NCBI GenBank assembly: GCA_035933635.1
Contig: DASYYY010000021.1
Span: forward strand, 86,918-150,917
Direction of reading: 5' to 3'
DNA: 64,000 nt
Origin: Thermoplasmata archaeon
GTDB taxonomy: Archaea > Thermoplasmatota > Thermoplasmata > Lutacidiplasmatales > UBA184
Part shown: positions 21,601 through 53,540 of the stretch, piece after piece
Position numbering within the stretch: position 1 is the first letter of the stretch
How the letters are laid out: every line of letters starts with the position of its first letter
The notes under the pieces: generated by a model
What the model was told of the DNA's origin: nothing
Seen by the model: only the letters and a program-made list of their open reading frames with translations
The model's database searches: none
Program-made: the position numbers and the translations under genes

Positions 21601-23070
21601 GTGACCGCACCTTCGGGCCGCCGCGGCGGACGCCACTCGGTCCTGCGGGTACGTGCGAGCACTCTGCCGTGGAAACTGATCACCATCCCGGTGGCGTTCC
21701 TGGTCGTGCTGAGCACGATCGGCGCCCTCGTCGCCTCGAACGGGATGGTGGACTCCAATGCTTGCGGAGGCGGCTGCAACGGAACCCTGCAGCAGACCCC
21801 CCAGCTGCACCTCGGCTCGGTACTCGGGGTCCCTCGCACCGATCGGTTCTGGGCGGTCGCCGACCAGGCGGCCTATCCGCAGTCGGGTCCGGGCCTGGCC
21901 CGGATGATGAGCGCGACCCCGATCTCGACCTACCGCTTCGATGTGGGCGTCGACAGCACGAACCAGACCACCGACACCGGCTACACCGACCTCGGTACCA
22001 CCTACCCCTCGGGGTTGGACGACGCGGCGTTCATCAGTTGGTGCCGGTCGATCGGATGCCACGCGATCCTCGGCGTGCCCGCCGAGACCAACAATCCCGG
22101 CGCCGCCGCGGCGACCGTGCGCTACGTCGAGCAGACGCTGAAGTTCCACCCCGAGTACTGGAGCATCGGAAACGAGCCCGGCTCCTGGAACCACTACGGG
22201 ATCCCCTGGGCGAAGTGGTCGCTCCTGGACCGGTCCACGTGCGACGCGACGTGCTACGCCAAGGACGTCCAGCGGCTCGTCCCCGCACTGAAGAAGGTCG
22301 ACCCCTCGATGCGCATCATCGGGATCCAGGACTCCTACTGCGGCAACGACAGCTACCTCCGTGCGGTGGTGGCGATCGACGGGCCGAACCTCTCGGCGGT
22401 GGCGTGCCACATGTACCCCGCGAGCCAGTACCTTCGACCGACGCTGGGACAGTTCTACGGCGCGCTCCAAGGGCGCTGGAGTCTGCCCTTCAAGATGGAC
22501 CGTATCGACCAGGTCATCGACTACGAGTGCCCCGGGTGCAATCTTCCGATGCTCATCGACGAGTACAATGCCGCCTGGTTCCCCATCCCGCTCATGACCG
22601 GGTACCCGAACGCGGTGTTCCTCGCCGCGACGATCATCCAAGCGCTCTCGGTCAATGCGACCCAGCTCGCCTTCTTCACGCTCGAAGACGCCGGATCGTT
22701 CGGATCGTCGTACGGGATGATCTCCCCCTCGGGGACCGCGCTCTATCCGTACTACGTCTACTCCACCTTCGCCGAACACCTGGCCCTCGACGAGGTGGTC
22801 AACGCCACGATCCGGCCGACCATGGGGGGGGTCTTCTCCGTCGAGACGGTCAACGGCACGCACCGCTCGCTGTTCGTCGTGAACACCAACGTCACCCACG
22901 CGTTGACGTTCACGACCGCTCGATCGGGCTTTCCGACCACCGGCACGGCCGAGGTCTGGGAGTGGGGACCGACCTGGAAGACGCCGAAGGCGGCCGCGAC
23001 GAGCATCGGCCCGCTTCCGACGACTTGGACGGTACCGGCCCAAGGGATCTTCCTGCTGGACGTGAGTTGA
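21601..23070 (+). CDS. Membrane-anchored extracellular glycoside-hydrolase-like protein (clan GH-A TIM-barrel, WSIGNEPGSW motif), N-glycosylation-sequon rich
   Basis: N-terminal TM anchor LITIPVAFLVVLSTIGALVA. The IGNEPG motif is the clan GH-A acid/base region. Eight N-x-S/T sequons. Paralogous to the 51199..53496 protein. Confidence 0.6.
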   Translation: MTAPSGRRGGRHSVLRVRASTLPWKLITIPVAFLVVLSTIGALVASNGMVDSNACGGGCNGTLQQTPQLHLGSVLGVPRTDRFWAVADQAAYPQSGPGLARMMSATPISTYRFDVGVDSTNQTTDTGYTDLGTTYPSGLDDAAFISWCRSIGCHAILGVPAETNNPGAAAATVRYVEQTLKFHPEYWSIGNEPGSWNHYGIPWAKWSLLDRSTCDATCYAKDVQRLVPALKKVDPSMRIIGIQDSYCGNDSYLRAVVAIDGPNLSAVACHMYPASQYLRPTLGQFYGALQGRWSLPFKMDRIDQVIDYECPGCNLPMLIDEYNAAWFPIPLMTGYPNAVFLAATIIQALSVNATQLAFFTLEDAGSFGSSYGMISPSGTALYPYYVYSTFAEHLALDEVVNATIRPTMGGVFSVETVNGTHRSLFVVNTNVTHALTFTTARSGFPTTGTAEVWEWGPTWKTPKAAATSIGPLPTTWTVPAQGIFLLDVS

Positions 23071-33263: not shown

Positions 33264-33371
33264 CTCAGTGGGACACCACCAAGCATGTCATTTGTTCGGG
33301 GGTCCTGACGGGGCGAAAGGGACAGGTATAGCGCCGATTCCTCGCCGAAGAACCGGAGGGGAGACTTCGGG

Positions 33372-34668: not shown

Positions 34669-34688
34669 TTTCGGCCGAGGCTGGAACC

Positions 34689-36251: not shown

Positions 36252-36686
36252 TCATTTGAGGGCCTCCCGGATCTCCTCGTAGAGGCTCCTCCAGCGGTCG
36301 GCGCGTCCCTCGGGATCGGGGTCCAAGGAGGCCCGTCGAGTGAACTCTCCGGCTTGCAAGTCGTACCTGCGCAGGGCCTCCCGGAAGTATCCCACCAGGT
36401 CGGGCTGAGGGAGTCGGTACCCCGCCCGCCAAAGGTTGAGCGCCTCGGCCATGTGCTCCGCCAGCCCCAGTCCGAGGCCGTGGAGCCAAGCGAGGTCCTC
36501 GCTGCTCGGGAGCCCCTCCTCAGTAGCCGCTCGTTCGCGTACCGCCGCGGCGCGTGCCCGTTGCCGAAAGGCGTGGACGTTGTTGAGCCGCCGGGACCGC
36601 TGGTGCTTGGTCCAGCAGTCAGCGCAGAACTGGCTCCGGGGCCCGATCCTGGGCTGGGCGTTGCAGCGATTGCAAACCGCGATCAT
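36252..36686 (-). CDS. Hypothetical protein with N-terminal zinc ribbon
   Basis: MIAVCNRCNAQPRIGPRSQFCADCW. 4-bp overlap (ATGA) with the upstream methyltransferase gene. Confidence 0.4.
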   Translation of the reverse strand: MIAVCNRCNAQPRIGPRSQFCADCWTKHQRSRRLNNVHAFRQRARAAAVRERAATEEGLPSSEDLAWLHGLGLGLAEHMAEALNLWRAGYRLPQPDLVGYFREALRRYDLQAGEFTRRASLDPDPEGRADRWRSLYEEIREALK

Positions 36687-37723
36687 CGGGAGCTCCGCCT
36701 ACCCCGGAGGCGATGGGGACGCTCATCCCGGAGCCCAGCGAGATTCCGGGTGAGAACCTTCCAGTTCTTCGGGCTCGCCTCGATCCCGACCGACCTCCGG
36801 CCGAGCTTGTGGGCGACCCGGAGGGTCGTCCCGGAGCCCGCGTACGGGTCCAGGATCGTGTCGCCCGGCTTGGTGAGGGTCGCGACGAGGAGGGTGACGA
36901 GGTCCTCGGGCTTCGCTGCGAACAGGTCCCCCTCCATCGACGGGAGCGAGAACACCACGTCGACCGGATAGTGCCAGCCATTCGAGGAGTACTCACGTCC
37001 TTCGACGGGGTACTCGCCGTGGTGCTTCGGCCCGGACCACTTGATCGCGTGCCAGGGCTTCCCCCGACGGTGCATCGCGCCGAGGTTGAACGTGAGGTCG
37101 CCGACCTTCGCGTCCTTCCGCTTGAAGACGTGGAGCATCTCGTGGGCGCGGAGCGGTTCGTAGTCGGAGAGCCAGGGGGAGGACCGGATGGGACCTCCGA
37201 CCCGACCCTTGACCCAGACGATTTGGAACCGGTGCTGGAGCCCGACGTCCATGAAGGCTGAGGCGGCCCGGATCGCCATCGCTCCAGCACCGTGTAGGAC
37301 GACTTGCCCGGTCGGGCAGAGTACCCGGGCGATGTTCACGCCCAACCAATCCCAACTCGGGACTCGATCCCAATCCGCGGACGTAGTACCGTAGGGGGGG
37401 TCCAAGTAGGCCAGGTCGAACGAGTTCCTCCGGAGACGGGGTAGGATGTCCTCCGCGATCCCCGAGCGAAGTTCGGGTTGGTAGAGCCTCGGTCGGCACT
37501 TTCCGTAACCTTCGCGAATAAGGTGGCGTCGGTGACCTTGGGTGTAGGACCGATCGCAGAGGTACCAGTGGGGACCATGGCGGTGCGGGGCAACCGAAAG
37601 CGGCGGGTCGGGGTGACGCGCAGGACCGGCCGTTTTGGGGTCCCCGGGTACTTGCCCCTGGTCGGCCGTCAGGAGGCACCTCCCGGCGTGCCCCCGTCGT
37701 CCTCCCATCGCTGCTGCGCGCAA
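36683..37723 (-). CDS. DNA methyltransferase (N6-adenine/N4-cytosine, beta-class), apparently orphan
   Basis: DLAYLDPPYGTT (motif IV) precedes ILDPYAGSGTTLRVAHKLGRRSVGIE (motif I). No adjacent restriction endonuclease gene. The start overlaps the prim-pol gene's 3' end because no in-frame start lies downstream of it. Confidence 0.75.
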   Translation of the reverse strand: MRAAAMGGRRGHAGRCLLTADQGQVPGDPKTAGPARHPDPPLSVAPHRHGPHWYLCDRSYTQGHRRHLIREGYGKCRPRLYQPELRSGIAEDILPRLRRNSFDLAYLDPPYGTTSADWDRVPSWDWLGVNIARVLCPTGQVVLHGAGAMAIRAASAFMDVGLQHRFQIVWVKGRVGGPIRSSPWLSDYEPLRAHEMLHVFKRKDAKVGDLTFNLGAMHRRGKPWHAIKWSGPKHHGEYPVEGREYSSNGWHYPVDVVFSLPSMEGDLFAAKPEDLVTLLVATLTKPGDTILDPYAGSGTTLRVAHKLGRRSVGIEASPKNWKVLTRNLAGLRDERPHRLRGRRSSR

Positions 37724-40059: not shown

Positions 40060-40226
40060 TCCTGCCTCGCACGGGACCGGGCGAGCCCGGCAAGGACCGG
40101 CGCCACGAGGTCGAACTGCGCCTCGTCCATCCGGTCGGGAAGCCCCAGAAGTATCTCGCGGAGTGGATCACCCGGGCGGAGTTCCCGGACCGCGATCCGC
40201 TTCACCTCCCCAAGCAAGACGGGCAT
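40056..40226 (-). CDS. Small ORF (56 aa) translationally coupled between the AbrB-like gene and the replication gene
   Basis: MPVLLGEVKRIAVRELRPGDPLREILLGLPDRMDEAQFDLVAPVLAGLARSRARQE. Stop/start overlaps on both sides (ATGA). Below the ORF-track length cutoff. Confidence 0.3.
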   Translation of the reverse strand: MPVLLGEVKRIAVRELRPGDPLREILLGLPDRMDEAQFDLVAPVLAGLARSRARQE

Positions 40227-40424
40227 TCAGCCCTCCATCGCCTTGCGGACGCGGTCGGCCTGCGACGACTCGCGGGGGATTAGGACGAGGACGTCGCCGA
40301 ACAGCAGCTCGACGTGCTGCCCCTTCCGTATCCCGTTGCCTTCAGCGAACGCTTTCGGCAGATGGAGGAGCTTTGCGCCCGTACCACCCACCTCGCCGAT
40401 TCGCGCGCTCTGACGGCTTGGCAT
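40227..40424 (-). CDS. AbrB/SpoVT/MazE-like swapped-hairpin DNA-binding protein
   Basis: LHLPKAFAEGNGIRKGQHVELLFGDVLVLIP resembles the SpoVT_AbrB domain. First gene of the replication-module operon. Confidence 0.5.
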   Translation of the reverse strand: MPSRQSARIGEVGGTGAKLLHLPKAFAEGNGIRKGQHVELLFGDVLVLIPRESSQADRVRKAMEG

Positions 40425-40473
40425 GCCCTTGGGCAGACACTGATGTACCCTATAAGGCTCACAACGATGTGAG

Positions 40474-41526
40474 TTGGGGGGCCCCGCTCACATGTCGAAG
40501 AGAATCCTAGACCCATGGGACCCGCACGGGTCGCCCGAACGAAAGCGCAGGGCGGTGCCTTCAGAGGCCCGAGCGCTCGTCATTGACCTGCTCGAGGAGT
40601 TGACCCCACGACGACATTCGCCCAACGATCCCATTCCGATTGGGCTGATGCTTGACGAATCCGAGCGGTGGGTCGGGAGCGGACGCTGGAAGTACGGGCC
40701 GCCCGCCGGGCGCCATACGCTCGAGGTCCGGATCCTCCGCGCGATGGCCCCGCTGATTTCAGAGGGGCGAGTGCGCCGCATCGAAGGTCACGGATTCCTC
40801 CTCGCCGGAGCTGAATCTGCCGACCGGGCTCTCGAACGAGCAATACAACGTCTCCAATGGGTCCGTGACGCGCTCAAGCTACCGAAGGCCGAACGGGGTA
40901 CGTGGGCCGGGTCCGCCTGGACCTATGCGACCTGGGCCTTCGTCGACGCGATTCCACTCGTGGAGGATCGAGTCTCCGATGAGATGGAGAAGTGGAAGCG
41001 AGAGCGAACCACCCTTCGCCGAGTCGATGACGATCCGATGAATGCACACCTGGAAGCGACGCTACGCGGATCAAATCTAAGCGTCCCTGACGCGATTCGC
41101 GAGATGGGCCAGGAGATCTTCGCCTCCGGCCTGAAGCACCAGCTCGCACCGAAGTGTGAGCTATGTCAACGCGATTTGCCTCATGAAGGGAAGGCTACGG
41201 ATTTTCACGAGGCGATCGAATCGAGGTTGAAGCTCGTCGAGGGGTTCGACCCGACCGCGCACGGTCACTCCCCGTGCGGGGAACAGTGCAACGCCTTCTG
41301 GCTTCTGGATTACCTCAGGCACGGGATGAGGGAAGCCCCGCCGCAGTGGGCGAAGGAGCTACCGCCTGCACCGCCGGCGCCCTTACTACCGCTTGGTTCT
41401 CGTCCAGCCGCGACACAAACTCCCACCCCTCGGCGAGCATGGCGCCGACTTCGCAAATCGGGACCGCCTTCTGAGCTGGTCTTACGGGCGCGGCGGAAGC
41501 GAGGAACTTCCCGAAGATCGCCTTGA
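40474..41526 (+). CDS. Hypothetical protein (element-encoded). C-terminal ~200 nt overlap the integrase gene on the opposite strand
   Basis: Non-repetitive sequence up to about residue 285, then a Pro/Arg-rich tail. Likely start is MSKRIL (40492). No family recognised. Confidence 0.3.
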   Translation: MGGPAHMSKRILDPWDPHGSPERKRRAVPSEARALVIDLLEELTPRRHSPNDPIPIGLMLDESERWVGSGRWKYGPPAGRHTLEVRILRAMAPLISEGRVRRIEGHGFLLAGAESADRALERAIQRLQWVRDALKLPKAERGTWAGSAWTYATWAFVDAIPLVEDRVSDEMEKWKRERTTLRRVDDDPMNAHLEATLRGSNLSVPDAIREMGQEIFASGLKHQLAPKCELCQRDLPHEGKATDFHEAIESRLKLVEGFDPTAHGHSPCGEQCNAFWLLDYLRHGMREAPPQWAKELPPAPPAPLLPLGSRPAATQTPTPRRAWRRLRKSGPPSELVLRARRKRGTSRRSP

Positions 41527-42622
41527 GCTCGTCCTCGGATTTCTCAGCGAGGTCGAGCTTATCCAACTCACCCTGCGGCATCCCCCGGGCTGAGAGTAGT
41601 GCCTTGAGGACCTTGTTGACACCATCATCCGCCCCGGACTTGGTGGGGACGGTCGAAAGAAACGGCTCGCACCGCTTGTAGGCGGCCCTCTGGTCCTCGA
41701 CCATAGATGCCGGGAGGTTCGGTCTCCCGGTCGTGTAGTGTCGCGCGGTCACGTCCCCGGTGTGTCCCGACCAGAACTCGACGTACCTATCCGAAACTTT
41801 CCCCGCGTTCGCCGCCTCGAGGCAGCGAGAGAAGAAGTAAGAGCGAAGGGCGTAGGGGCGGGCCCCGATTCCAGCAGCGCGGAGGGCCTGGCGCGCCCGG
41901 TCGCCCACGTTGATCGTCGTCATGAACCGCTTGATGCTCTTCGACGGCGACACTAGGTCTGTCTCCTTGTCGATCTTCTCTCCTCCAAGCGCTCTCTCCT
42001 CGAGGTGCTGCTTGAGGTACTCGCAGCCCTCCGTCCCCAGGAACGTAAAGTAAGCGTGCCCGGCTTTCGACGAGGTGGAACGAACCTTCACCAAGGCCGG
42101 GACCTTCTCGATTTGGACGGTCTTCGCATGGATCGAGAGCCCTTCGATGTCGCCAACTCGGAGCCCATCCGTGCCATCGTACGAGCCCAGCACCTGCGGT
42201 CGAAGCCCGCTGAAAGCCATCAGAGCGATTACGACGCGCTGCCCCGGGTTGGCTGCAAGGACAGCCTTCCGAAGCTGTTCCGGTGTGATCGGGTCCTCCC
42301 GTTCGACCCGCGGATGCGACCTCTCGTTGGGGACCTTCAGACCTCTTGGGAGTTCCTTCTCATTGTAAGCTAACCAGCTCCGTAGCGCTTTGAGTGTAGT
42401 CCGGACATACTCTCCTGAGTGCTTCGCCCTGCGTTCTTCTTCGAGGTAGTCCTCCAACTGCACCCGGAGCCGATCCTTTGAGACTTCGGCGAGAGTTTCC
42501 GGGTCGGTCTTCATCTGGCGACAGAATGCCTCGATCCGCCGTCGGCTCACGTCAGCGTAGAGCTGCGATCCGCGGGCAACATTTCGGTGCCAGCGGTCAA
42601 ACTTCTCTGACGGATTGGCCAT
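41315..42622 (-). CDS. Tyrosine recombinase/integrase
   Basis: ALMAFSGLRPQVL (box I Arg) and WSGHTGDVTARHYTT (HxxR...Y box II). 45 nt from the 3' end of tRNA-Ile. Confidence 0.85.
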   Translation of the reverse strand: MANPSEKFDRWHRNVARGSQLYADVSRRRIEAFCRQMKTDPETLAEVSKDRLRVQLEDYLEEERRAKHSGEYVRTTLKALRSWLAYNEKELPRGLKVPNERSHPRVEREDPITPEQLRKAVLAANPGQRVVIALMAFSGLRPQVLGSYDGTDGLRVGDIEGLSIHAKTVQIEKVPALVKVRSTSSKAGHAYFTFLGTEGCEYLKQHLEERALGGEKIDKETDLVSPSKSIKRFMTTINVGDRARQALRAAGIGARPYALRSYFFSRCLEAANAGKVSDRYVEFWSGHTGDVTARHYTTGRPNLPASMVEDQRAAYKRCEPFLSTVPTKSGADDGVNKVLKALLSARGMPQGELDKLDLAEKSEDELKAIFGKFLASAAPVRPAQKAVPICEVGAMLAEGWEFVSRLDENQAVVRAPAVQAVAPSPTAAGLPSSRA

Positions 42623-42667
42623 GGCCTCGATAGGCCCAGCGCGTGTGGGTTAAAATGGGTTCCTACT

Positions 42668-42742
42668 TGGGCCCAGTCGGATTTGAACCGACGACCTCCC
42701 GGTTATCAGCCGGGTGCTCCAGCCAACCTAAGCTATGGGCCC
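42668..42742 (-). tRNA. tRNA-Ile (anticodon GAU)
   Basis: Manually folded 75-nt cloverleaf: 7-bp acceptor stem GGGCCCA/UGGGCCC, D-stem GCUU/GAGC, anticodon stem CCCGG/CCGGG with loop CUGAUAA, T-stem GUCGG/CCGAC with loop UUCAAAU, discriminator A. CCA is not encoded. Confidence 0.85.
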
Positions 42743-42992
42743 ATTGCGTCGCAGTTCGTGCTGCGGCGCGGGGCCCACGAACGCCCTCCTACTAAATTCA
42801 ATCCCCTCAATCGAACCCGATTCCTCTCGGGGCCGGAGGGGTTCTCACCGAGGCTGGTCGCGGGATTCGTGGGCTCATCGCCGGCCGCGAAGAGGTGTGG
42901 AGAGGTGCCGCCCGCCAGCCTCGTCGAGTCTGTAGCCTTGTTACTCTGACCGGGACCCGAACGCGGCTCGGGCCGGACGTCGACCGATCGAT

Positions 42993-45186: not shown

Positions 45187-45382
45187 GAACGCGAAGGCGT
45201 CCCGCGAGATAGGCGGCGCATTCGCGGCCGGGAGTATCGAGCGTGCGAAACGAACGGGGATGGGCCCGGGTGGAGGAGGCGCGACGCCTGCCACATCCAG
45301 GGCTTCGGAACCACGACTCGGATGGCCCGAGTCACACGACGAGCCCCCTTGCACGCGACCCGCGTCGTCGGAGTGGGGACTG

Positions 45383-46810
45383 ATGGCCGAGGACGCCCGT
45401 TACGTGCGAACGCCGATCACCGAGGAATCCGCCGACCAACGGCGAACGACCTTCGGGGAGATCCAGCTGCCGTACCTGCCGGAGGAGGCGGTGCTCGAGG
45501 GCCAGCGTTGCCTGCAATGCGCTCTCCCGTTCTGCGTCGAGGCTTGCCCCATCACCCAAGACTGTCGCGGCTACATCCGGCTCGTCGGGGAGCGGAAGTT
45601 CGACGAGGCCGCGAAGCTCACGCTGCGCGAAAATCCCCTCGCGATGACCCTGTGCAAGGTCTGTTACCACTATTGCGAGGACTCGTGCATCATGGGCGAG
45701 CGGGGCGTGCCGATCGCGATCCGTCAACTGAAGCGGGCGGCGATGGAGCTCGGGAGCTGCAACCTTCTCTACGTTCCCAGCGCTCCGCGCAATCAACGCA
45801 TCGCCATCGTCGGTGGCGGCCCAGCCGGGCTAATGGCGGCCTGGGAGCTCGGGATCCGCGGCTACTCGGTCACAGTCTTCGAGGAGGAGGAGTACCTCGG
45901 TGGCCAGGTAGCGACCATCCCGAAGTACCACATGGACGGCCGGGAGTTCGCGCTGGACGTCGCCCGCTTCCGCAACCTCGATGTGACGTTCTCGATGGGC
46001 AAACGCGCCGGCTCAGACTTCGATCCGGTGGCGCTGCTGCAGCAGGGCTATCGAGCAGTCTATCTCGCCGTTGGCACCACCTTCCACAACTCCCTCGGCA
46101 TCCCGGGCGAAGACCTGCCCGGCGTCTACCCGGCGATCTCGTTGCTGCGCGCGCTGAACCGCGGTCCTCCGGTGAAGCTCGGGCAGAAGATCGTCGTCGT
46201 GGGCGGCGGGGACGTGGCGATGGACGCTGTCCGCTCGGCACTCCGACTCGCCCCCCAAGGAATGGTCGAGCTCGTCTACCGCAAGGGTCGCGAGCAGATG
46301 AGCGCCGGGAGCGAGGAGCTGACCGAGGGCGACGAGGAGCGCGTCCATCTAGTGTTCGAACGGTCCCCCAAGAGGGTCCTCGGGGAGGACCGGGTCCAGG
46401 GCCTCGTGGTCCAGCAGATGCAGCTCGGCCCCCCGGGCGCGGGGGGCGTCCGCCCGCTGCTTCCCGTGCCGGGAACCGAGGAGACGATCGCATGCGACAC
46501 GGTCATCGTGGCCGTGGGGGAGCGTACCGACCTGACGGGATTCCCCCCGGAACTGGACCTCAAGATGCGCCCGAACGGCTGGCCGGAAGGGAAGAACCCC
46601 GACTCGATGACCGCGGTCGAAGGGATCTTCGCCTCCGGGGGAAAGTCCGTGGTGTATGCAATGTCGGCGGGGAGCCGCTCGGCCCAGGCGATCGATGCCT
46701 ACCTCTGCAAGAAGGAGGGCCGGACACCCGGCCCGCGCCCGGACCCCTTCGGGGAAGGAGGGGCCACCGGGCCCCCGAAGGTCTACTCCGGCCCCACCTG
46801 GCATTTGTAG
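45383..46810 (+). CDS. NADPH-dependent glutamate synthase small-subunit-like (GltD family) FAD/NAD(P) oxidoreductase with N-terminal Fe-S cluster
   Basis: CLQCALPFCVEACPITQDC Fe-S motif. IAIVGGGPAGLMAAWEL (FAD) and KIVVVGGGDVAMDAV (NAD(P)). Start MAEDARYV (45383). The 735-aa ORF 45322..47529 is a different frame over this region. Confidence 0.8.
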   Translation: MAEDARYVRTPITEESADQRRTTFGEIQLPYLPEEAVLEGQRCLQCALPFCVEACPITQDCRGYIRLVGERKFDEAAKLTLRENPLAMTLCKVCYHYCEDSCIMGERGVPIAIRQLKRAAMELGSCNLLYVPSAPRNQRIAIVGGGPAGLMAAWELGIRGYSVTVFEEEEYLGGQVATIPKYHMDGREFALDVARFRNLDVTFSMGKRAGSDFDPVALLQQGYRAVYLAVGTTFHNSLGIPGEDLPGVYPAISLLRALNRGPPVKLGQKIVVVGGGDVAMDAVRSALRLAPQGMVELVYRKGREQMSAGSEELTEGDEERVHLVFERSPKRVLGEDRVQGLVVQQMQLGPPGAGGVRPLLPVPGTEETIACDTVIVAVGERTDLTGFPPELDLKMRPNGWPEGKNPDSMTAVEGIFASGGKSVVYAMSAGSRSAQAIDAYLCKKEGRTPGPRPDPFGEGGATGPPKVYSGPTWHL

Positions 46811-46941
46811 TCCTCCGGCCGTCGCAGTTTTCCGGCCGACTCTGGAAGGAATCCCTGACTCTCACGCCCCCTGTGCGGTGGGCGACCCATCCGTCGCATT
46901 CTTGGCCTCGCCCGGCCGTACATACACCGAACTGGAGCTCG

Positions 46942-47529
46942 ATGTCGCGTCGAAACCGCCCGGGACGGGCCGCGGACCGGGAGGACGCCTCCCCCCCAGG
47001 TGCCGGGTCGAAGCCGGGCATTCGAAGAGGCGTTGTGGTCCTCCTCGTCGTGGCCGTCGCGGTGATCGCCGCCGTCGCCGTTTACGAGGTCCTCGAGCTG
47101 AGGAATCTATCGAAGCCTTCACGAGGTGGCGGTGGAGAGAACTCCACAAGTCCCTCGGGCACGATCCTGGTGGCCAACGGTACGACTTGGCCGATCGGGC
47201 CGCGCCACTACGAGGGTAGCTGGTTCAATATCGACTACACATCGGAGGTCCAAGGGACGTTCCGGTCCTCCACCCTGGTGACGGGGTACATCCTCCCTTC
47301 CGGTGCATTCGTCGGTTACGCCGGTGCGAACTCGAGCTACGGGGCCGTCCCGGCCTCCGGGTCCCCGAGCCCCAACAACTGGACCTCGGGAAGTTCCATG
47401 GGAGGTTACATCGACACCTTCCTCGATCCCGGGGAGTACGAGATCTTCTTCGTGAACGCCAACTCCAGCGCGACGGCCTCCCTCGGCATGACGAGCGACC
47501 TGATCGCTTCGACCGAGTCGGTCGGCTAG
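46942..47529 (+). CDS. Small membrane-anchored extracellular protein, sequon-rich
   Basis: N-terminal TM GVVVLLVVAVAVIAAVAVY. Six N-x-S/T sequons in 195 aa. Represents the 3' part of ORF 45322..47529 after an internal ATG. Confidence 0.45.
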   Translation: MSRRNRPGRAADREDASPPGAGSKPGIRRGVVVLLVVAVAVIAAVAVYEVLELRNLSKPSRGGGGENSTSPSGTILVANGTTWPIGPRHYEGSWFNIDYTSEVQGTFRSSTLVTGYILPSGAFVGYAGANSSYGAVPASGSPSPNNWTSGSSMGGYIDTFLDPGEYEIFFVNANSSATASLGMTSDLIASTESVG

Positions 47530-47560
47530 AACTGCGCGGGTCCGACTTCGGCGGCGGCGA

Positions 47561-50500
47561 TCACGCGGCGCGAGGTCGCCCGCGGGTCGGCCGCGGGACC
47601 CGGCGCCGGTGGTCCGCGACCACCAGCGCGAGCGGGGCCGTCGCGTTGTGTCCCGTGGCGTCGACCACCGTCACGGACAGACGGAACAGGCCGGTCTGGT
47701 TCGGCACGCACGTCAACACGGCCACCGGCAGCGCAGCACAGCCACCGGGCAGTCCGGACCACGTGTACTGGTACCCCCCAGCCCCCCCCACGGCCAGCGC
47801 CGTGAGGTTGAGCGGGGCCCCCAATGTCGCCGGGGTCGACCACACGAACGGACCTCGGACGCTGAGCGGCGCGCCGGGCCCGGTCAGGTAGCGCACGAAG
47901 GAGAACTGCATGCCGTGGGCGATCCCGGTCAGGGGGCTCGGGTCGACGCTGGCGATGCTGATCCAGGGCGCGGTCGCGACGAGCTCGGCCCGTTGGCCGG
48001 CGTAGAGGTACAGGGCCAGGTCGTTCGCCACGGTCTCGATCTGACCGTACAGCACACCCCGTCGCGGTCCTGGGGGGATCGTATCGGCCTGGTGGATCCC
48101 GACCACCATCGAGGCGTAGGCAGCCCCCTGGCAGCTGTTCGGGATGGGCGAGGTCGAGTTCGCCCAGTAGCCGAGCGAGGTCGAACAGTTCGTGGCGTTG
48201 AAGAGCTGGAGTCGCTCGGCGAGCGCGCTCGAGGCGGTGTAGAACGTGTCGGGCAGGTAGAGCGGGTCGACCGAATCGGAGGGGTCGGCGTAGTCCACCG
48301 CCGCGCTCAATCCGGTCGTGACGAACGGACCCAGCCCGCCGGGCCCGGAATAGAGCGTGTCGGCGGTCAACCGTGCCGCGCTCTCATTGCGCAGGACGGG
48401 GAGGAGCGACCGATTGGAGAGCGACTCGATCGAGGCGACCCACATCTTGTCGGACTGCCCGGCGGCAGTGGCGTTGGTCGGGTAGGTCACCAGGAAGGAG
48501 CAGGGTGAGAGGGGCGTGCAGACCGGGCCGACCATCGGGTCGTGAGCGGTCTGGTTCCACCACCAGGCCGCCCCACCGACGTCGGCCGGATTGGTGTCCG
48601 GATTGCCGCTCGGCCAGGCGATCCCTTGGGGTGTGGACGGGCCGAGGAACTGCGGGATGGCCCCGCCGTCGAGGAACCGGCTGCTGAGCCCGGCGACGCC
48701 GAACGCGTAGGTCATCGCCGAATCGTAGGGGAAGGCGTGGACCAGGAACTGGCGCAGGTTGACGTCGTCCAGGAGCGTGCTCGGAGCGGTGAGGTTCTGC
48801 CCGGCGAGTCCGGCGGCGCGGGTCGCGTTGGACCAGAGGTTGAGCGGGTCGAAGTAGGTCGTCAGCGAGGGGAATTCGTCGATCCCGACGAGCCCCTGGG
48901 TGACGTCACTGACGAGCATGGTCGTCCCGTTCGGCGGCAGCGTGGCGAGGTCGGAGCTGCCTGTGACAATGGCGGCTTGCACCGCACCCGGGGTCGTCGC
49001 CCAAGTGACGTTGACCTGCGGGACGAAGGCTCCCTTCGCGGGAAGACAGCCGGGGGCGGTGCAGACCGCGACGGTCGACCAGCTCGGGTTCGTTCGGAGG
49101 ACATAGCCCACCCCCCAGGTCTCCCGGGCCAGGTAGTACGGTCCGCTCCCGACCATCGCCTGGAGCGCCCGGCCATGGCTCGGGTAGATCGAGCCGTTGA
49201 GCTCCCAACTGTCGAAGCCGGTCGCCGGGACGGTCGAGACCGCCACGCCGTATCCTGAGGATCCGGGCGCAGCACACGGCGCGTCGCCCGCCCCGCTCAC
49301 ATTGCCGAGGGTCCAGTAGGGAATCCCCAGACCCTGGGCCGCCGCACTGAACCAGCCGCAGGAGACGATCGATGCGCCGACCGGGCTGGCAAGGACCTCC
49401 AGGGCCGTACGGAAGCCCGGGGAGAGCGAGGTGTGGGGGAACTGCAAGGTGACGCACCCCCGCTGACCGGCGGCCATCGCCGCCTTCGGACACAGGCCCG
49501 ACGCGTTGAGGGTAATCGAGCCGTACATCCAGCGCGGAGTGTTGTTGACCGGCAGGTGGGCCGCGCCATCCCACGAGTAGCTGCCCGCGGGCAGCAGCCC
49601 TTGGCTGACCATCCAGCCTCCGTTGCACTCCCAGCAGGGCGAATTGGCGAGCGCCATCGTCCGGATCAGCGAGAACAGCACGTCGGTGGGCCAGACGCCC
49701 CAGCTCGCCCCGGTGGCCGGGTCGTAGAACGCCGACCGGTTGTTGATCACGAAGGTGAGGTTGTCGCCCCGGGCGAGCGAGTTCCCGTAGAGCGAGATAC
49801 ATCGGCCGCTGCCGGGGACGCAGGTCGCCAGATCCGGCTCGAACGAAACCGGGCCGCGCCCCGTGGCGGAACCGTTGGCGAGGATCAGAGTCTGGTAGAC
49901 GTTCGCCATCGCCTCGGCGCCGGCGGGCTCGTAGTCGATCGCCGGGTCGAAGGAGGCCGCCCCTCCCGGGGCGTACTCCACGACACGCAGCGTCCCGTGA
50001 TGACCGGAGGCCGACCGAGGGGGCAGCAAGCCACCCAGGCCGCTCCCGACCACGATTGTGAAGGTGTAGTTGCTCCAGGCCAGGGACCAGTTGACCCCCA
50101 CGAGGGTCTTGGTCGGGAGCGTGTAGTTGAGCTCGTAGAATCCGGGTGGGGTCGTCGCGCCGAATCCGATCCGGACGCTGCTCGTTCCGTTCGGCTGGAG
50201 GAGGGGCGCGCTCAGCGTCCCGAACCCGACGGCGTTCTGGCTCTCGGAGAACCGGGGGACGAACTCGCGGGTCAGGTCGTTCGACGGGGGCAGGACGTCG
50301 GTGACCCGGACGGTGACGCTCCCCCCTGGCGCGACGTAGGGAGTGGCGAGAGTGCCCGTTGAGGAGTTCGAAGCGATCGATCCGGTCAACAGCGCCCGCA
50401 CCCCCGCCGGATCGCCGACGGTCGAGGGGAGCACCACGTACTCGAGCAGGTGCGCACGGCTATCGTGGATGTGGCCCGTTGCGTCGAGCGCCGTCGCGCA

Positions 50501-50893
50501 CACCGCGTAGGTGCCCGGCGTCGCGTACGGATGGCGGACCTCGGGGCTGTGGCTGACGGCAAATCCTCCGTCGCCGAACCACCAGAGGTAGGAGACGCCC
50601 ACCGCCCCGGCGGGCAGTACGGCGAAGAACCGGGGCCACTGGCCATAGAGCGAGGTCAGATTGGGTGACTCCACCACAAGGTCGTGGAGGTGGGTGCTCC
50701 CCGACACGATCCCGCAGGGGTTCGCGCTCCCGGTCACCGCGCTTGTGGCGCTCGGTCCGGTAAAGCCGGGTGCGCTCGCAGCGGTCGACAGACCGGAGCT
50801 GGCGCCCAACAGGCTGACCAGGACGATCCCGATCCCCGCGCTGGTGGCTCGGAACCGACGCGAAGGGCGGATACGGTGACGTTCGAGCGTCAT
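47561..50893 (-). CDS. Large secreted/extracellular glycoprotein (1110 aa) with C-terminal PKD-like domain, S-layer/surface-protein-like
   Basis: Signal peptide or anchor IGIVLVSLLGASSGLSTAASA. About 27 N-x-S/T sequons. C-terminal YQYTWSGLPGGC...LSVTVVDATGHNAT is PKD-like. TATA-like ttatacttcataaa lies upstream. Confidence 0.65.
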   Translation of the reverse strand: MTLERHRIRPSRRFRATSAGIGIVLVSLLGASSGLSTAASAPGFTGPSATSAVTGSANPCGIVSGSTHLHDLVVESPNLTSLYGQWPRFFAVLPAGAVGVSYLWWFGDGGFAVSHSPEVRHPYATPGTYAVCATALDATGHIHDSRAHLLEYVVLPSTVGDPAGVRALLTGSIASNSSTGTLATPYVAPGGSVTVRVTDVLPPSNDLTREFVPRFSESQNAVGFGTLSAPLLQPNGTSSVRIGFGATTPPGFYELNYTLPTKTLVGVNWSLAWSNYTFTIVVGSGLGGLLPPRSASGHHGTLRVVEYAPGGAASFDPAIDYEPAGAEAMANVYQTLILANGSATGRGPVSFEPDLATCVPGSGRCISLYGNSLARGDNLTFVINNRSAFYDPATGASWGVWPTDVLFSLIRTMALANSPCWECNGGWMVSQGLLPAGSYSWDGAAHLPVNNTPRWMYGSITLNASGLCPKAAMAAGQRGCVTLQFPHTSLSPGFRTALEVLASPVGASIVSCGWFSAAAQGLGIPYWTLGNVSGAGDAPCAAPGSSGYGVAVSTVPATGFDSWELNGSIYPSHGRALQAMVGSGPYYLARETWGVGYVLRTNPSWSTVAVCTAPGCLPAKGAFVPQVNVTWATTPGAVQAAIVTGSSDLATLPPNGTTMLVSDVTQGLVGIDEFPSLTTYFDPLNLWSNATRAAGLAGQNLTAPSTLLDDVNLRQFLVHAFPYDSAMTYAFGVAGLSSRFLDGGAIPQFLGPSTPQGIAWPSGNPDTNPADVGGAAWWWNQTAHDPMVGPVCTPLSPCSFLVTYPTNATAAGQSDKMWVASIESLSNRSLLPVLRNESAARLTADTLYSGPGGLGPFVTTGLSAAVDYADPSDSVDPLYLPDTFYTASSALAERLQLFNATNCSTSLGYWANSTSPIPNSCQGAAYASMVVGIHQADTIPPGPRRGVLYGQIETVANDLALYLYAGQRAELVATAPWISIASVDPSPLTGIAHGMQFSFVRYLTGPGAPLSVRGPFVWSTPATLGAPLNLTALAVGGAGGYQYTWSGLPGGCAALPVAVLTCVPNQTGLFRLSVTVVDATGHNATAPLALVVADHRRRVPRPTRGRPRAA

Positions 50894-50940
50894 GGCACCG
50901 ACGCCTCGGGCGTTCCGCAGGCGATGGGCGCGGGCAGGGC

Positions 50941-50957
50941 GTTATACTTCATAAACC
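50941..50957 (-). promoter_or_regulatory. TATA-box-like AT-rich element upstream of the 1110-aa surface protein gene
   Basis: gttatacttcataaacc reads on the minus strand as GGTTTATGAAGTATAAC. It lies about 50–64 nt upstream of the ATG at 50893 in an otherwise ~68 % GC context. Confidence 0.3.
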
Positions 50958-51198
50958 CCCACCGCGGCGCTCGCGACCACGTCTTCGGACCGCACATCCC
51001 CCCCGCGGCCGCCGCCCGAGGTACGTCTCCCCCTCCGATCGGATCCGGAGGAGTACTCCCGAGTAAGACAATGGCCCGTGGCACGCGGGGGGACGTCTGG
51101 GGAGTTAGGGCCGAGCATCGGAAGGTAGGGTGGGAGCTCTCGGGCTCGAGCGTTCGCGCGGGCTGCCGCGCCATCGCCGTGGGCTCAGAGTCGGAGAA

Positions 51199-53496
51199 TC
51201 AGCGAAGGGGAGGGGCCATCGACGAAGCACAGTGGAACAGCGCGGGAGCCGGTGGGGAGTAGGCGCTGGGCCCAAGCAACGAATGGAATGAGATCCGCGG
51301 AGGGGCGGTCTTGGTCACGGACGCGAGTCCGAGGCTCGAGGGGCTCTGATGGGCCTGGAACCCGCCGAGAAGCCCACCGGAGGTCCCCACGGGGGATCCG
51401 ATGAACGCGAGGTCCGCGGCCGAGCCGCTCGACGCATGACCGCCGCCGGACCCCGGCCCGAACCGGAAGTGGACGACGGCGACGCCGTATCCGGCAAAGT
51501 GCACCGTCATCGGTCCGATCGGAGAGAACGATACGTTCGAGACGCCCGAGCGAGCCAGGGTGGTCCAGTTCTGGGTACTGTTGAAGTTCATCGAGTAGGT
51601 CGTGGCATCGAGCAGGGTGTAGTTCGACGCGGTCGCCGTTTGCCCGTCGACCGAGAGGATCACCGTGGTGGGGAGGGCATTGCGGTTCGCCAACACCAGG
51701 TTGAAGCCACCCGAGGTCGGGGCGGCGAAGGCACGGACCATGCCGGGATCGGAGGAGGAGACCGAGAGACCGGGTGCGCCGGCGGCGACGCCGTTGCCCC
51801 AGAGCTCGGTCGCCCAGTACGGGGCGTAGTAGACATCGGAGGTGCGGCTCAGCTCCTCGGCGAGCGAGTAGCCCCAGCCTCCGTAGGGGTAGGTGATCGG
51901 GCCGGGCGTCGAGTACGGCCCCTCGAGGGCGAACAGGGTGACCGCGCTCAGGTCCGTGGCCGCCGCGTCGACGAAGTCCGAGACGACCCAGGCGGCGGAG
52001 AACAGGGTCTGCTGGCGGGGGTCGGTGCCGTAGGTGTCGTAGGAGTTGAGGTTCGATTCGGTGTTCAGGATCGGAAGCCACTGATGGGTGAGGTTGTACC
52101 AATCCCACTGCTCGGTGAGGGGAGGGAGGAACACCGCGCCGTGGGCGAAGTCAGCGCTCCGGGCGAGGATAGAGCTGTCCGTGTAGTAGGAGTTCACATC
52201 GTCGGGGGGGCAGAACGTCGTGTTGTCCGGGCACCCTCCGTTCGCGGGGTAGAAGTGGAACTGGAGGAAGCCGACGCCGGTCGCGTTCTGGGCGAAGAAC
52301 GGCAGGACGGAGGGCCGAGCCATCACGTCCGACCCGACGAGCGCGCCGGGCGAGGCGTTGTGGATGATGGCCGCCGCCGCGTTGAAAAGTGGAACATAGG
52401 CCTGCGCCTGTGATAGGTTGGCCCACACGGGCACCTCGTTGCCGATGTTCCAGTACGAGACGTTGGGCAAACCCGCCGCCACCGCGCCGTTGACGAAGGT
52501 CCGGACGAACACGCGGAAGGCCGAGAGGTTGGGCAGGTAGCCCAACCCCCCGCTCTTGGAGGTGAGCTCCAAGGTGGTGTTGAGCGGCATGCCGATCGGG
52601 AGCACGTTGCCGTCTCCCCACGTGCCCACCGGTAGGTCGATCATGTTGACCGCTCCGACCGAAGTGCTGAGGTTGAACAACGGCCCGAGCCCCGCGAAAT
52701 TGAACGAGGGAAGACCGGTGGTATTGTTCCAGCTGGCCGGGGCGACGGCGACCTCGCTCCATCGCAGGATCCCCGGGGTGAGGTTGCGCACCATCTGGAC
52801 GAAGTTCGGATCGTTGCGCGGGACCTGGGCAGAGATCGCGGGATTCGCCAGGACGAGCCCCACTGTGGGTGCGCGGGCCCCGGAGGGCTGAAGATCATCG
52901 ACGGCGACCCCGACCGATAGGTGCTCGGTGCCCACGATCTCGTACGAGCAGTTCGTCCACGAGGCGAGCCGGCTCAGCGTGAGCGTCGCCGGATCGTAGC
53001 TCCAGTTCCAGCTGTCATCGACCCCGTTGTACCAGACCGTCCACGTCCAGTTTTCCATCGGTGGGAGTACGTCGGCCCCCCCGGCGATCTGGCCCGGGAT
53101 CGACCATTGGAGGAGCGGAGAGGTGGACACATTGACCGCCAGCGTGCGGAACGGCAGCGGCGTGCTGAGATTGAGCCAATACGCACGCTGGGAGGTCGGA
53201 ACCCCGCCCGGTGCGGGAAGGAGAGGCGTGACGGTATCGGAGAGCAGACTCTTGATGCCCGCCACGATCACGGAGATCTCCTGACCGTCGGTGACCGAGG
53301 CGATCGAGAGGAACGCCCCCAAGGCAGGATGCGTCGCGGCGCGGGGGTGGTTCATCGCCCCACCCGCCGGTGCGATCGCGCTGGAGAGCAGCACGGCCGC
53401 TGCGACGGTGACGACCCCCAACGACCCCCAAAGCAGGGTACGGGAGGCAGGTCCTCCCATCCGGGGCGAGTCGGGAAGTTTGGCCCGAACAACCAT
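51199..53496 (-). CDS. Secreted clan GH-A-like glycoside hydrolase family protein (YWNIGNEVPVW motif), heavily sequon-decorated, 765 aa
   Basis: N-terminal signal/anchor LLWGSLGVVTVAAAVLLSSAIAPAGGA. Paralog of 21601..23070 with the shared IGNE acid/base motif. 21 N-x-S/T sequons. TATA-like gtgtatatgt lies upstream. Confidence 0.6.
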   Translation of the reverse strand: MVVRAKLPDSPRMGGPASRTLLWGSLGVVTVAAAVLLSSAIAPAGGAMNHPRAATHPALGAFLSIASVTDGQEISVIVAGIKSLLSDTVTPLLPAPGGVPTSQRAYWLNLSTPLPFRTLAVNVSTSPLLQWSIPGQIAGGADVLPPMENWTWTVWYNGVDDSWNWSYDPATLTLSRLASWTNCSYEIVGTEHLSVGVAVDDLQPSGARAPTVGLVLANPAISAQVPRNDPNFVQMVRNLTPGILRWSEVAVAPASWNNTTGLPSFNFAGLGPLFNLSTSVGAVNMIDLPVGTWGDGNVLPIGMPLNTTLELTSKSGGLGYLPNLSAFRVFVRTFVNGAVAAGLPNVSYWNIGNEVPVWANLSQAQAYVPLFNAAAAIIHNASPGALVGSDVMARPSVLPFFAQNATGVGFLQFHFYPANGGCPDNTTFCPPDDVNSYYTDSSILARSADFAHGAVFLPPLTEQWDWYNLTHQWLPILNTESNLNSYDTYGTDPRQQTLFSAAWVVSDFVDAAATDLSAVTLFALEGPYSTPGPITYPYGGWGYSLAEELSRTSDVYYAPYWATELWGNGVAAGAPGLSVSSSDPGMVRAFAAPTSGGFNLVLANRNALPTTVILSVDGQTATASNYTLLDATTYSMNFNSTQNWTTLARSGVSNVSFSPIGPMTVHFAGYGVAVVHFRFGPGSGGGHASSGSAADLAFIGSPVGTSGGLLGGFQAHQSPSSLGLASVTKTAPPRISFHSLLGPSAYSPPAPALFHCASSMAPPLR

Positions 53497-53530: not shown

Positions 53531-53540
53531 GTGTATATGT
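53531..53540 (-). promoter_or_regulatory. TATA-box-like element upstream of the 765-aa extracellular protein gene
   Basis: gtgtatatgt (minus strand ACATATACAC) lies 35–44 nt upstream of the ATG at 53496. Confidence 0.3.

Follow-up and report, generated by a model that had tools for sequence, protein, structure and literature searches.

Why would an archaeon of acidic soil load enzyme-like and binding-protein-like surface proteins with N-glycosylation sequons, and what do these proteins do? Acidic soils and peat harbour the Lutacidiplasmatales, abundant archaea that have not been cultured. Their published dbCAN annotation lists intracellular alpha-glucan enzymes only (GH57, GH15, GH133; PMC9287336). 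The locus discussed here is part of a window of 64,000 nucleotides, the whole stretch of DNA that was analysed, from a 69% GC Thermoplasmata MAG. Judging from sequence and structure models, we propose with a probability of roughly 0.7 that its sequon-rich proteins, adapted to acid and shielded by N-glycans, act as ecto-glycosidases and as a binding protein and together would aid extracellular glycan breakdown.

Gene calls, host and surface topology

Translation recovers all four ORFs reported in the initial annotation (Table 1), and an independent gene caller yields the same products of 765, 1110 and 195 aa in other assemblies. The four genes had been described as a cluster. Three of them do lie together at 46942-53496, the 195-aa gene and the 1110-aa gene being convergent, but the 489-aa gene is located 24 kb outside, past an integrated element. 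This element is the low-GC stretch at 26-34 kb; an rRNA operon was considered for it and rejected, as Rfam found tRNA only.

Table 1. Coordinates of the four genes and of their predicted features.
Feature	Position (nt)	Strand	Basis
195-aa small surface protein	46942..47529	+	ORF, translation
195-aa: basic N-terminus, one TM helix (aa 30-48)	47029-47085
195-aa gene: TATA-like GTACATACAC box just 5' of ATG	46918-46927
1110-aa PKD / SBP-family-5-like / PKD-like surface glycoprotein	47561..50893	-	ORF, Pfam
1110-aa: 27 sequons, 18 Cys; signal-like segment (aa 21-39)	50777-50833
1110-aa: N-terminal PKD (aa 89-143)	50465-50629
1110-aa: conserved core (aa ~297-990)	47924-50005
1110-aa: Pfam SBP_bac_5 match (aa 577-732)	48698-49165
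1110-aa: C-terminal PKD-like domain (aa 1019-1085)	47639-47839
1110-aa gene: AT-rich box TTTATGAAGTATAA	50942-50955
765-aa clan GH-A-like ecto-glycosidase candidate	51199..53496	-
765-aa: 21 sequons; N-terminal hydrophobic segment (aa 26-44)	53365-53421
765-aa: N-terminal beta-sandwich (aa 63-217)	52846-53310
765-aa: (beta/alpha)8 barrel (aa ~230-560)	51817-52809
765-aa: R245, predicted active site	52762-52764
765-aa: predicted acid/base N353-E354	52435-52440
765-aa: H414 and Y416, predicted active site	52249-52257
765-aa: predicted nucleophile E480	52057-52059
765-aa: C-terminal beta-sandwich (aa 575-680)	51457-51774
765-aa: disordered Ser/Gly/Pro tail (aa 683-765)
765-aa gene: TATA-like ACATATACAC box	53531-53540
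489-aa clan GH-A-like ecto-glycosidase candidate	21601..23070	+
489-aa: 8 sequons; N-terminal membrane anchor (aa 26-44)	21676-21732
489-aa: barrel (aa ~68-395)	21802-22785
489-aa: predicted acid/base N191-E192	22171-22176
489-aa: H270 and Y272, predicted active site	22408-22416
489-aa: predicted nucleophile E321	22561-22563
489-aa: C-terminal beta-sandwich (aa 398-488)	22792-23064

Proteins of the window are 100% identical to entries of a Thermoplasmata archaeon MAG (locus tags VGV89_03775 and VGV89_03905). By source names and GTDB record titles, all relatives found are Thermoplasmata or Lutacidiplasmatales, among them some unassigned Thermoplasmata MAGs. An archaeal origin, as had been proposed, is thereby supported, and the host is not a bacterium lacking N-glycosylation; with host and relatives being Thermoplasmata/Lutacidiplasmatales MAGs, archaeal N-glycosylation is plausible. 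Lutacidiplasmatales have been described as ~69% GC organisms of acidic soils (PMC9287336). The host is predicted to be a mesophilic soil acidophile.

Each of the four proteins has a single N-terminal hydrophobic segment and all 62 sequons are C-terminal of it, in agreement with the surface location suggested earlier. With the topology taken from these segments, the sequons reside on extracytoplasmic polypeptide, as expected for N-glycoproteins made by AglB. The sequences are poor in Lys, Arg, Asp and Glu and contain conserved Cys residues. In the smallest protein, all 6 sequons follow the TM helix in an ectodomain of ~145 aa. This protein has no Pfam or NCBIfam match. Its family, with 36 representative clusters, covers lengths of about 150-240 aa; each cluster has one N-terminal TM, the median sequon density is 1.4 per 100 aa, and one homologue is found near a 765-family pair in locus L011.

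AglB is widely conserved in archaea (PMC6098224) and N-glycans have been observed at NXS/T sites of Thermoplasmatales filaments (PMC12448462), from which we infer that the host contains AglB. An ORF with the WWDxG motif of AglB was found neither in the window nor in 38 further loci (711 kb), which are a small sample. Sequon density is known to be higher in thermophiles and acidophiles (PMC6098224), with approximately one site per 30-40 residues in thermoacidophile glycoproteins (PMC11284389). From their sequences, we infer that the four proteins are glycosylated at their sequons by AglB.

Sequon excess

Counting N-[not P]-S/T, we find 6, 27, 21 and 8 sequons in the proteins of 195, 1110, 765 and 489 aa, respectively, identical to the numbers of the initial annotation. 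The resulting density is 1.6-3.1 per 100 aa, compared to 0.15 per 100 aa (21 sequons in 14,201 aa) for the remaining 43 predicted proteins of the window, and the Poisson p of the excess lies between 6e-7 and 1e-23. That non-secreted proteins might be equally sequon-rich had been named as one ground for refutation; those of the window are sequon-poor. No further outlier for sequons is found among stop-to-stop ORFs of at least 100 aa in every frame of the window.

The excess could be a by-product of secreted proteins that are rich in Asn, Ser and Thr, without any selection for glycosylation. The composition indeed points in this direction, with 3.7-5.6% Asn in the four proteins vs 1.7% in the rest of the window, and 17-21% Ser+Thr vs 10.6%. 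However, 5000 shuffles of each protein's own sequence lead to an expectation of 1.9-7.1 sequons where 6-27 are observed. The probability to reach at least the observed number is 0.0034 for the 195-aa protein, 0 for the 1110-aa and 765-aa proteins and 0.0028 for the 489-aa protein, which bears out the claim that sequons are more frequent than by chance. Sequons take up 44%-63% of all Asn in the four proteins, in contrast to 8.6% in the other proteins. The motif also has a direction: 62 forward N-x-S/T stand against 14 reverse S/T-x-N (binomial p 2e-8), while the other window proteins, serving as control, show 21 forward and 23 reverse. Furthermore, single sequon positions are conserved among homologues of 30-45% identity, namely N468 in 32/35 and N306 in 27/35 homologues of the 765-aa protein and N263 in 27/32 homologues of the 489-aa protein. 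A purely compositional origin is already disfavoured by these observations, and we regard it as highly improbable. Family-wide medians of sequon density are 2.2, 2.1 and 1.6 per 100 aa. Sequon enrichment as such is expected biology for such archaea and not new.

Two GH-A-like protein families

The two acid/base motifs that had suggested a relation to clan GH-A are present, WSIGNEPGSW at aa 187-196 of the 489-aa protein and YWNIGNEVPVW at aa 348-358 of the 765-aa protein. The two proteins had also been called paralogous. This is supported at the superfamily level by profile-profile comparison (97.4% probability, E 1.4e-11, 16% identity), but not by pairwise BLASTP, which aligns the NE motif alone and is not significant (E 0.22).

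In AlphaFold models, both proteins contain the (beta/alpha)8 TIM-barrel catalytic domain of clan GH-A. The Asn-Glu acid/base is placed at the C-terminal end of strand 4, with N353-E354 directly after predicted strand 346-351 in the 765-aa protein and N191-E192 after 186-189 in the 489-aa protein; it is invariant in 35/35 and 32/32 homologues, respectively. The nucleophile Glu is found at the end of strand 7 in both proteins, E480 within strand 476-481 (invariant in 34/34 homologues) and E321 within strand 317-322 (32/32). E321 aligns with the Glu of the XynB1 ITEYN motif and E480 with E321 (hhalign). Every homologue keeps the two catalytic Glu as well as the Asn and His/Tyr without any substitution, which argues that enzymatic function is retained.

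For the CAZy families GH79, GH39, GH51, GH30, GH44 and GH5 we obtain no significant model match. No Pfam or NCBIfam GH model is found at E<=0.1 for either protein, nor any GH model at E<=1 for 35 members of the 765-aa family, and single-sequence PDB searches of the GH-A-like proteins return nothing informative. The profile of the 489-family matches GH39 XynB1 with E 3.8e-7 over 176 residues, and GH79 and GH44 at ~5e-4; the best reach of the 765-family profile is E 0.08. Of the suggestion that these are surface-displayed glycosidases, the surface topology and the predicted GH-A fold hold, while Pfam and NCBIfam assign no GH family. Judged from the models, both proteins are probably active retaining glycosidases of GH79/51/39/30-like architecture. 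By sequence they constitute two new, distantly related and lineage-restricted families of putative enzymes, missed by current Pfam and NCBIfam models. They are candidate extracellular glycosidases overlooked by standard annotation. Should they prove active, our view of soil organic matter use by Lutacidiplasmatales would have to be revised, and they could become founding members of new CAZy families with acid-stable enzymes.

Many homologues of the 765-family carry an added C-terminal TM and a basic tail; the window copy has no C-terminal anchor. A frameshift hiding such a TM was searched for in three frames of the 3' end and the intergenic DNA, and none was found.

The PKD-flanked 1110-aa protein

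The N-terminal PKD domain (PF00801) scores 47.5 bits, above the gathering score of 23.5. The C-terminal PKD-like domain noticed in the initial annotation gives a match as well, with 21.2 bits (E 3e-4) just under this cut-off. An S-layer-like nature of the proteins is not confirmed: Pfam and NCBIfam detect no S-layer domain in any of the four, and the 1110-aa protein, with PKD and SBP-family-5-like regions instead, is not recognisably S-layer. Its SBP_bac_5 match of 21.7-22.7 bits (E 1.3e-4) stays below the cut-off of 32.4 and outside formal PF00496 membership. All of its 98 homologues are from Thermoplasmata and most contain PF00496, and the family profile finds PKD (1.7e-7) and OppA 2z23 (0.008) in the PDB. 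From the PF00496 matches in most homologues and the similarity to OppA, a family-5 solute-binding fold is likely. Some homologues are named ABC substrate-binding protein.

No cognate ABC permease or ATPase adjoins the 1110-family gene in seven loci (window, L031, L032, L037, L038, L039 and L040), so that a transport role is unsupported; an unrelated BPD_transp_1/ABC_tran pair in L039 lies 3 kb off, past a Kelch gene. Archaeal SBPs are major glycoproteins and envelope components (PMC11284389, PMC3047682), and in one Asgard archaeon the principal glycoprotein is an SBP5 (PMC11284389).

The proteins might have a mainly structural role, forming, jointly with other anchored proteins of high sequon density, the disordered extracellular glycoprotein layer found in place of an S-layer in many Thermoplasmata. 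The GH and SBP folds would then be scaffolds, whether or not some activity is left. Thermoplasmatales are devoid of an S-layer and possess an unordered glycoprotein layer (PMC12448462). The 1110-aa family would suit such a layer, as it is large, Thermoplasmata-wide and 'orphan', occurring even amid housekeeping genes without a transporter, and combines a heavy sequon load with membrane anchors and PKD domains. The strict invariance of the catalytic residues argues against a mere scaffold in the case of the GH-A-like proteins, and we consider a structural role improbable. We likewise give little credence to the bolder proposal that the GH-A-like and PKD-SBP5 proteins are major parts of an S-layer-replacing layer, with the GH-A families being new GHs that attack sulfated/phosphorylated glycans in concert with the sulfatases and phosphoesterases encoded nearby. 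The sequon-dense proteins are concrete candidates for the glycoprotein layer of S-layer-less Thermoplasmata. If they do form it, functional hydrolases and binding proteins would make up the coat of the cell.

Gene neighbourhoods and proposed function

A 765-family gene is followed by a 1110-family gene in 3/7 loci examined (window, L031 and L038); in L031 the two genes overlap by 4 nt and the 1110-family product has 1100 aa. In the closest relatives, the 1110-aa family is genetically coupled to the 765-aa family. Among 126 neighbour genes of the 765-family, the Phosphodiest model is matched 15 times and the Sulfatase model 12 times, where one protein may match both. The same census contains PF04185 phosphoesterase (6), Kelch (12) and GT4 (7), and the neighbours also include thermopsin, ATP sulfurylase and APS kinase. 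In addition, PF04185, PKD and a 489-family domain occur in a natural fusion. The sulfatase, phosphodiesterase and PF04185 neighbours together with this fusion make scavenging of substituted glycans most likely. The 489-aa gene is located downstream of an ABC-2 transporter operon (18716-21313). As a conserved partner this operon was dismissed, being absent in L002, the single homologous locus examined.

Genes of glycan biosynthesis (GT4, GT2, flippase, PAPS synthesis) are present in the neighbourhoods too, and they fit remodelling of envelope glycans as well as scavenging. By analogy, the GH-A-like proteins could trim the cell's own envelope glycans, be it a sulfated N-glycan, lipoglycan or exopolysaccharide, and not serve feeding. 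PslG (GH39-like) belongs to the psl operon of Pseudomonas, and polysaccharide-synthesis loci encode further hydrolases. However, the GH-A-like families are multi-copy and often in tandem, MAG AcS5-116 having at least four copies. One would not usually expect this of an enzyme that trims glycans during biosynthesis. The window copies have no glycan-synthesis neighbours. The pairing with an SBP-like protein and the clustering with up to six sulfatase/phosphodiesterase genes in locus L035 look more degradative. We consider remodelling rather unlikely.

For the scavenging function that we prefer, the following model can be drawn. The four proteins of this 69% GC, Lutacidiplasmatales-type archaeon of acid soil would be extracytoplasmic, either membrane-anchored or secreted. 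After export, AglB would attach glycans to about one Asn in every 30-60 residues. Such a dense coat and the low content of Lys, Arg, Asp and Glu would stabilise the proteins against low pH and proteases, as has been reported for cell-surface proteins in other acidophilic archaea. With their complete set of Asn-Glu acid/base, His/Tyr and Glu nucleophile, the 765-aa and 489-aa enzymes would act as retaining glycosidases. They would contribute to the extracellular degradation of substituted glycans, whether sulfated, phosphorylated or containing uronic acids, and in this way to the scavenging of nutrients. The 1110-aa protein may bind the glycan, or the oligosaccharide released by the enzymes, at the cell surface.

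Comparison with known systems

Within clan GH-A, a barrel combined with a beta-sandwich is known from GH79 beta-glucuronidase/heparanase (5bwi, 5l77), GH51 alpha-L-arabinofuranosidase (3ug3, 1pz2), GH39 beta-xylosidase XynB1 (1w91/2bfg) and PslG (4zn2), and GH30 xylanases. This likeness is derived from AlphaFold models at 11-20% identity to PDB matches. The low identity and the lack of a significant Pfam or NCBIfam GH model set both families apart from the solved members of the clan, as does their confinement to Thermoplasmata/Lutacidiplasmatales MAGs. Compared with the 489-aa family, the 765-aa family possesses an additional beta-sandwich at the N-terminus and an invariant insertion, GTWGDGN..GMPLNTS.

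With the family-5 (Opp/Dpp-type) SBPs of archaeal ABC transporters, the 1110-aa protein shares a weak SBP_bac_5 core match that is clearer, as PF00496, in its homologues. This group includes the glycosylated SBP5 from Promethearchaeum syntrophicum and the 'bindosome' proteins of Sulfolobus, and the 1110-aa protein is predicted to be an extracellular glycoprotein as well. In contrast to these SBPs it is twice the usual size, has PKD domains on both flanks and belongs to a family without adjoining transporter genes, whose gene follows a GH-A-like gene in three loci.

Among acidophilic archaea, heavily N-glycosylated surface proteins include Sulfolobus acidocaldarius SlaA (31 sequons), Sulfolobus sugar-binding proteins and the archaellin of Oxyplasma meridianum (8 glycans). 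Our host differs in being a predicted mesophile, and glycosylation is here a prediction from sequence. The density of one sequon per 32-61 residues is within the range reported for thermoacidophiles (PMC11284389, PMC6098224, PMC12448462), and the extracytoplasmic location is common to both. Unlike S-layer or filament subunits, the proteins described here are enzyme-like and binding-protein-like.

Sequon enrichment and surface topology

The four sequon-rich proteins (195, 1110, 765 and 489 aa; see table) are best read as surface proteins that an acidophilic soil archaeon shields with N-glycans. The initial annotation had claimed 6, about 27, 21 and 8 N-x-S/T sequons, and a recount with the motif N-[not P]-S/T comes to exactly 6, 27, 21 and 8. 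The gene set holds 47 predicted proteins from a codon-usage gene model built for the 69% GC window; an independent gene caller also yields the 765, 1110 and 195 aa products in further public assemblies from this organism. Sequon density is 1.6–3.1 per 100 aa in the four proteins and 0.15 in the other 43 (21 sequons in 14,201 aa), with Poisson p values for the excess of 6e-7 to 1e-23. The non-secreted proteins of the window are thus far from equally rich, as is also seen for the two cytoplasmic GH15 enzymes that serve as internal control. This GH15 pair is in keeping with the report that Lutacidiplasmatales metabolise alpha-glucans inside the cell (PMC9287336).

When the residues of each protein are permuted 5000 times, the mean counts are 1.9, 7.1, 6.9 and 2.8 (195, 1110, 765, 489 aa), and the observed count or more is reached with a probability of about 0.003 or lower in each case. 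The motif occurs 62 times forward versus 14 times reversed (S/T-x-N; binomial p 2e-8), while the other window proteins have 21 forward and 23 reverse. The share of Asn residing inside sequons is 44–63% versus 8.6%, and six-frame inspection of stop-to-stop ORFs of at least 100 aa reveals no further sequon outlier in the window. Because of the shuffles, the reversed-motif count and the six-frame check, composition does not account for the excess, and within the window the claimed enrichment beyond chance is borne out. Sequon richness belongs to whole families beyond the window copies: family-wide medians are 2.2, 2.1, 1.6 and 1.4 per 100 aa (1.4 for the 195-aa family), and at 30–45% identity single sites are kept in 32 of 35 (N468) and 27 of 35 (N306) 765-family sequences and in 27 of 32 489-family sequences (N263). 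The high-GC DNA also contains many long spurious ORFs overlapping real genes on both strands. One open frame of 735 codons starts within a GltD-like gene and continues into the 195-aa gene; only over its last 195 codons does it show coding-type codon usage and have homologues.

The hydrophobic segments agree with a surface location. Basic residues followed by a single hydrophobic segment mark the N-terminus of each of the four proteins, and all sequons lie C-terminal to this segment. In many 765-family homologues the C-terminus is a TM helix followed by a basic tail, as is classic for archaeal surface anchors. The 765-aa protein of the window instead has a disordered Ser/Gly/Pro tail there, and translation of the 3' end of its gene revealed no TM in any frame. 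Compared with the window background, Lys (0.4–1.8% versus 2.5%), Arg (3.0–5.6% versus 9.1%) and Asp+Glu (5.4–7.7% versus 12%) are low, which together with conserved Cys residues in the protein families fits proteins facing an acidic exterior. NCBI entries named 'MAG TPA: Thermoplasmata archaeon' (VGV89_03905, VGV89_03775) match the 765-, 489- and 1110-aa proteins at 100% identity. When GTDB was scanned with one genome for each species, the 765-aa protein had relatives in MAGs of Thermoplasmata, Candidatus Lutacidiplasmatales and Ca. Lutacidiplasma silvani and nowhere else, so the host is not a bacterium lacking N-glycosylation. Lutacidiplasmatales are described from acidic soils, with a GC content of ~69% (PMC9287336).

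Features of the window and of one homologous locus (L038)
Feature	Position	Strand	Details
GH15 glucoamylase/glucodextranase-type gene	904-3336	-	810 aa; without signal sequence; 2 sequons
GH15 glucoamylase/glucodextranase-type gene	6441-8306	-	621 aa; without signal sequence; 1 sequon
ABC-2-type exporter operon	18716-21313	+	ATPase (326 aa), two ABC2_membrane permeases (266, 269 aa)
489-aa protein	21601-23070	+	8 sequons
Integrated element	26169-42687		~16.5 kb
Direct repeat copies	26169-26188, 42668-42687		20 nt, exact
N6/N4 DNA methylase	27623-29383		fused to Mrr-like endonuclease domain
AAA_21/DUF3696 ATPase	30471-31019		
Resolvase	34689-35300		
Second N6/N4 DNA methylase	36683-37345		
Probable integrase	41315-42622		435 aa; adjoins tRNA; no Pfam match
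tRNA-Ile(GAT)	42667-42743	-	3' end is second repeat copy
735-codon open frame	45322-47529	+	
195-aa protein	46942-47529	+	6 sequons
1110-aa protein	47561-50893	-	27 sequons
765-aa protein	51199-53496	-	21 sequons
L038 fusion protein (985 aa)	1619-4576	-	PF04185 phosphoesterase aa 122-341; PKD aa 376-449; 489-family domain aa 470-883 (35% identity, E 7e-77)

Two candidate GH-A families

Neither the 765-aa nor the 489-aa protein matches any Pfam or NCBIfam glycosidase model. Their reading as GH-A-like glycosidases is supported by predicted structure. AlphaFold models, built from alignments of 35 (765-family) and 32 (489-family) sequences, are confident in their cores (pLDDT 77 and 86) and show in both a (beta/alpha)8 barrel with a C-terminal beta-sandwich, with an extra N-terminal beta-sandwich (aa 63–217) in the 765-aa model. 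The signature residues of clan GH-A do not vary within the 765-family (R245, N353-E354, H414, Y416, E480) or the 489-family (N191-E192, H270, Y272, E321), and lie at the ends of predicted strands 4, 6 and 7. The 489-family profile matches GH39 XynB1 (E 3.8e-7), aligning 'vdEyn' to 'ITEYN', the motif which we take to hold the XynB1 nucleophile. Both proteins are probably members of unclassified GH-A families with retaining glycosidase activity. The two had been called paralogous; by BLASTP nothing is detectable outside the NE motif, whereas profile–profile comparison gives 97.4% probability (E 1.4e-11, 16% identity, 282 columns). Superfamily kinship therefore stands and close paralogy does not; the two are distant relatives.

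The 1110-aa and 195-aa proteins

The large protein had been described as ending in a PKD-like domain. A C-terminal PKD match is present, narrowly under threshold (21.2 bits), and the clear Pfam PKD domain is N-terminal. The core gives a weak, sub-threshold SBP_bac_5 match (21.7 bits). All 98 homologues are from Thermoplasmata, most contain PF00496 and several are called substrate-binding proteins; the family profile matches PKD domains and, weakly, OppA. No transporter genes lie beside the 1110-family gene at the seven loci examined. The order 765-family then 1110-family is found in the window and at two other loci, L031 and L038. The L031 pair (759 aa, 47% identical; 1100 aa, 45% identical; 4-nt overlap) is probably a second copy inside the window's own genome, and the L038 pair, from a different organism, is 54% and 49% identical. 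This order was not found at loci L032, L039 and L040. Judged from these profiles and gene orders, the 1110-aa protein is best described as a putative SBP5-fold binding protein genetically coupled to the 765-family.

At L040, a 1494-aa PKD-SBP5 family member (4291-10485) directly follows DUF929 and VKOR genes, VKOR being a vitamin K epoxide reductase-type disulfide oxidoreductase. With the many invariant Cys residues of the PKD-SBP5 family, this linkage suggests extracellular disulfide formation. The 195-aa family (36 representative clusters) is single-pass, with a sequon-rich ectodomain of ~145 aa.

Genomic context and function

Window neighbours are unrelated housekeeping genes (GltD-like oxidoreductase, VIT1, DUF72). 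TATA-like AT-rich boxes precede the 195-, 1110- and 765-aa genes; for the 489-aa gene there is an AT-rich stretch ~110 nt upstream of its start. An ABC-2-type exporter operon lies upstream of the 489-aa gene, its end 288 nt away, a linkage not seen in L002, the single homologous locus checked. Elsewhere in the window, an integrated element is flanked by the direct repeat TGGGCCCAGTCGGATTTGAA, and much of it (about 26–34 kb) has 58–63% GC versus ~69%. The element resembles a mobile defence island.

Outside the window, the 765-family is multi-copy and in many cases tandem. A census of 126 genes at most three positions from 765-family genes at 27 loci is dominated by the alkaline-phosphatase superfamily (Phosphodiest model 15, Sulfatase model 12, dual matches possible). 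Further genes encode Kelch propellers (12), GT4 (7), PF04185 phosphoesterases (6), GT2 (3) and fn3/PKD proteins, with ATP sulfurylase, APS kinase, GDP-mannose dehydratase, PGM/PMM and thermopsin as singletons. The L038 fusion gene, 1 kb from the 765-family/1110-family pair, joins phosphoesterase, PKD and 489-family domains and has a weak Pfam GH39 match (E 0.007); it is a Rosetta-stone hint that glycosidase-like domains cooperate with phosphoesterases. L035 (JAKIWG010000005.1, MAG AcS5-116) has seven sulfatase/phosphodiesterase-family and two PF04185 genes around one 765-family gene within 20 kb, an esterase-rich island resembling bacterial sulfated-polysaccharide utilisation loci.

A block conserved in two different Thermoplasmata genomes (L001 285-22439; L033 and L034) contains a Polysacc_synt flippase, HAD, GT4, APS kinase, sulfatase or PF04185, the 765-family gene and two large unannotated proteins; the L033 copy adds GT2 and a Kelch propeller, and L001 an 829-aa PNGase A-like gene. 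The block may be a locus of sulfated-glycan synthesis or remodelling. Since the neighbours include GT, flippase and PAPS-synthesis genes as well, a serious alternative is that the enzymes remodel a sulfated glycan of the cell's own envelope. We favour a scavenging role, in which the GH-A-like surface enzymes would act on substituted glycans, because of the multi-copy families, the sulfatase/phosphoesterase clustering, the phosphoesterase fusion and the pairing with a binding protein. The proteins may also be mainly structural, forming a glycoprotein coat without S-layer; Thermoplasmatales possess such an S-layer-less glycoprotein layer, of unidentified components (PMC12448462).

Comparison with known systems

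Overall, the observation of sequon-rich surface proteins is confirmed, and its interpretation is supported with the corrections described. At one sequon per 32–61 residues, the four proteins agree with the densities reported for surface proteins of thermoacidophilic archaea (PMC11284389, PMC6098224), and N-glycans have been directly seen on NXS/T sites in Thermoplasmatales (PMC12448462); for these reasons the enrichment is expected biology. The published dbCAN annotation of Lutacidiplasmatales did not report the two GH-A-like families (PMC9287336). The novelty is modest and lies in these two lineage-restricted families, one of which is linked both with PKD-SBP5, a large orphan family, and with loci rich in esterases.
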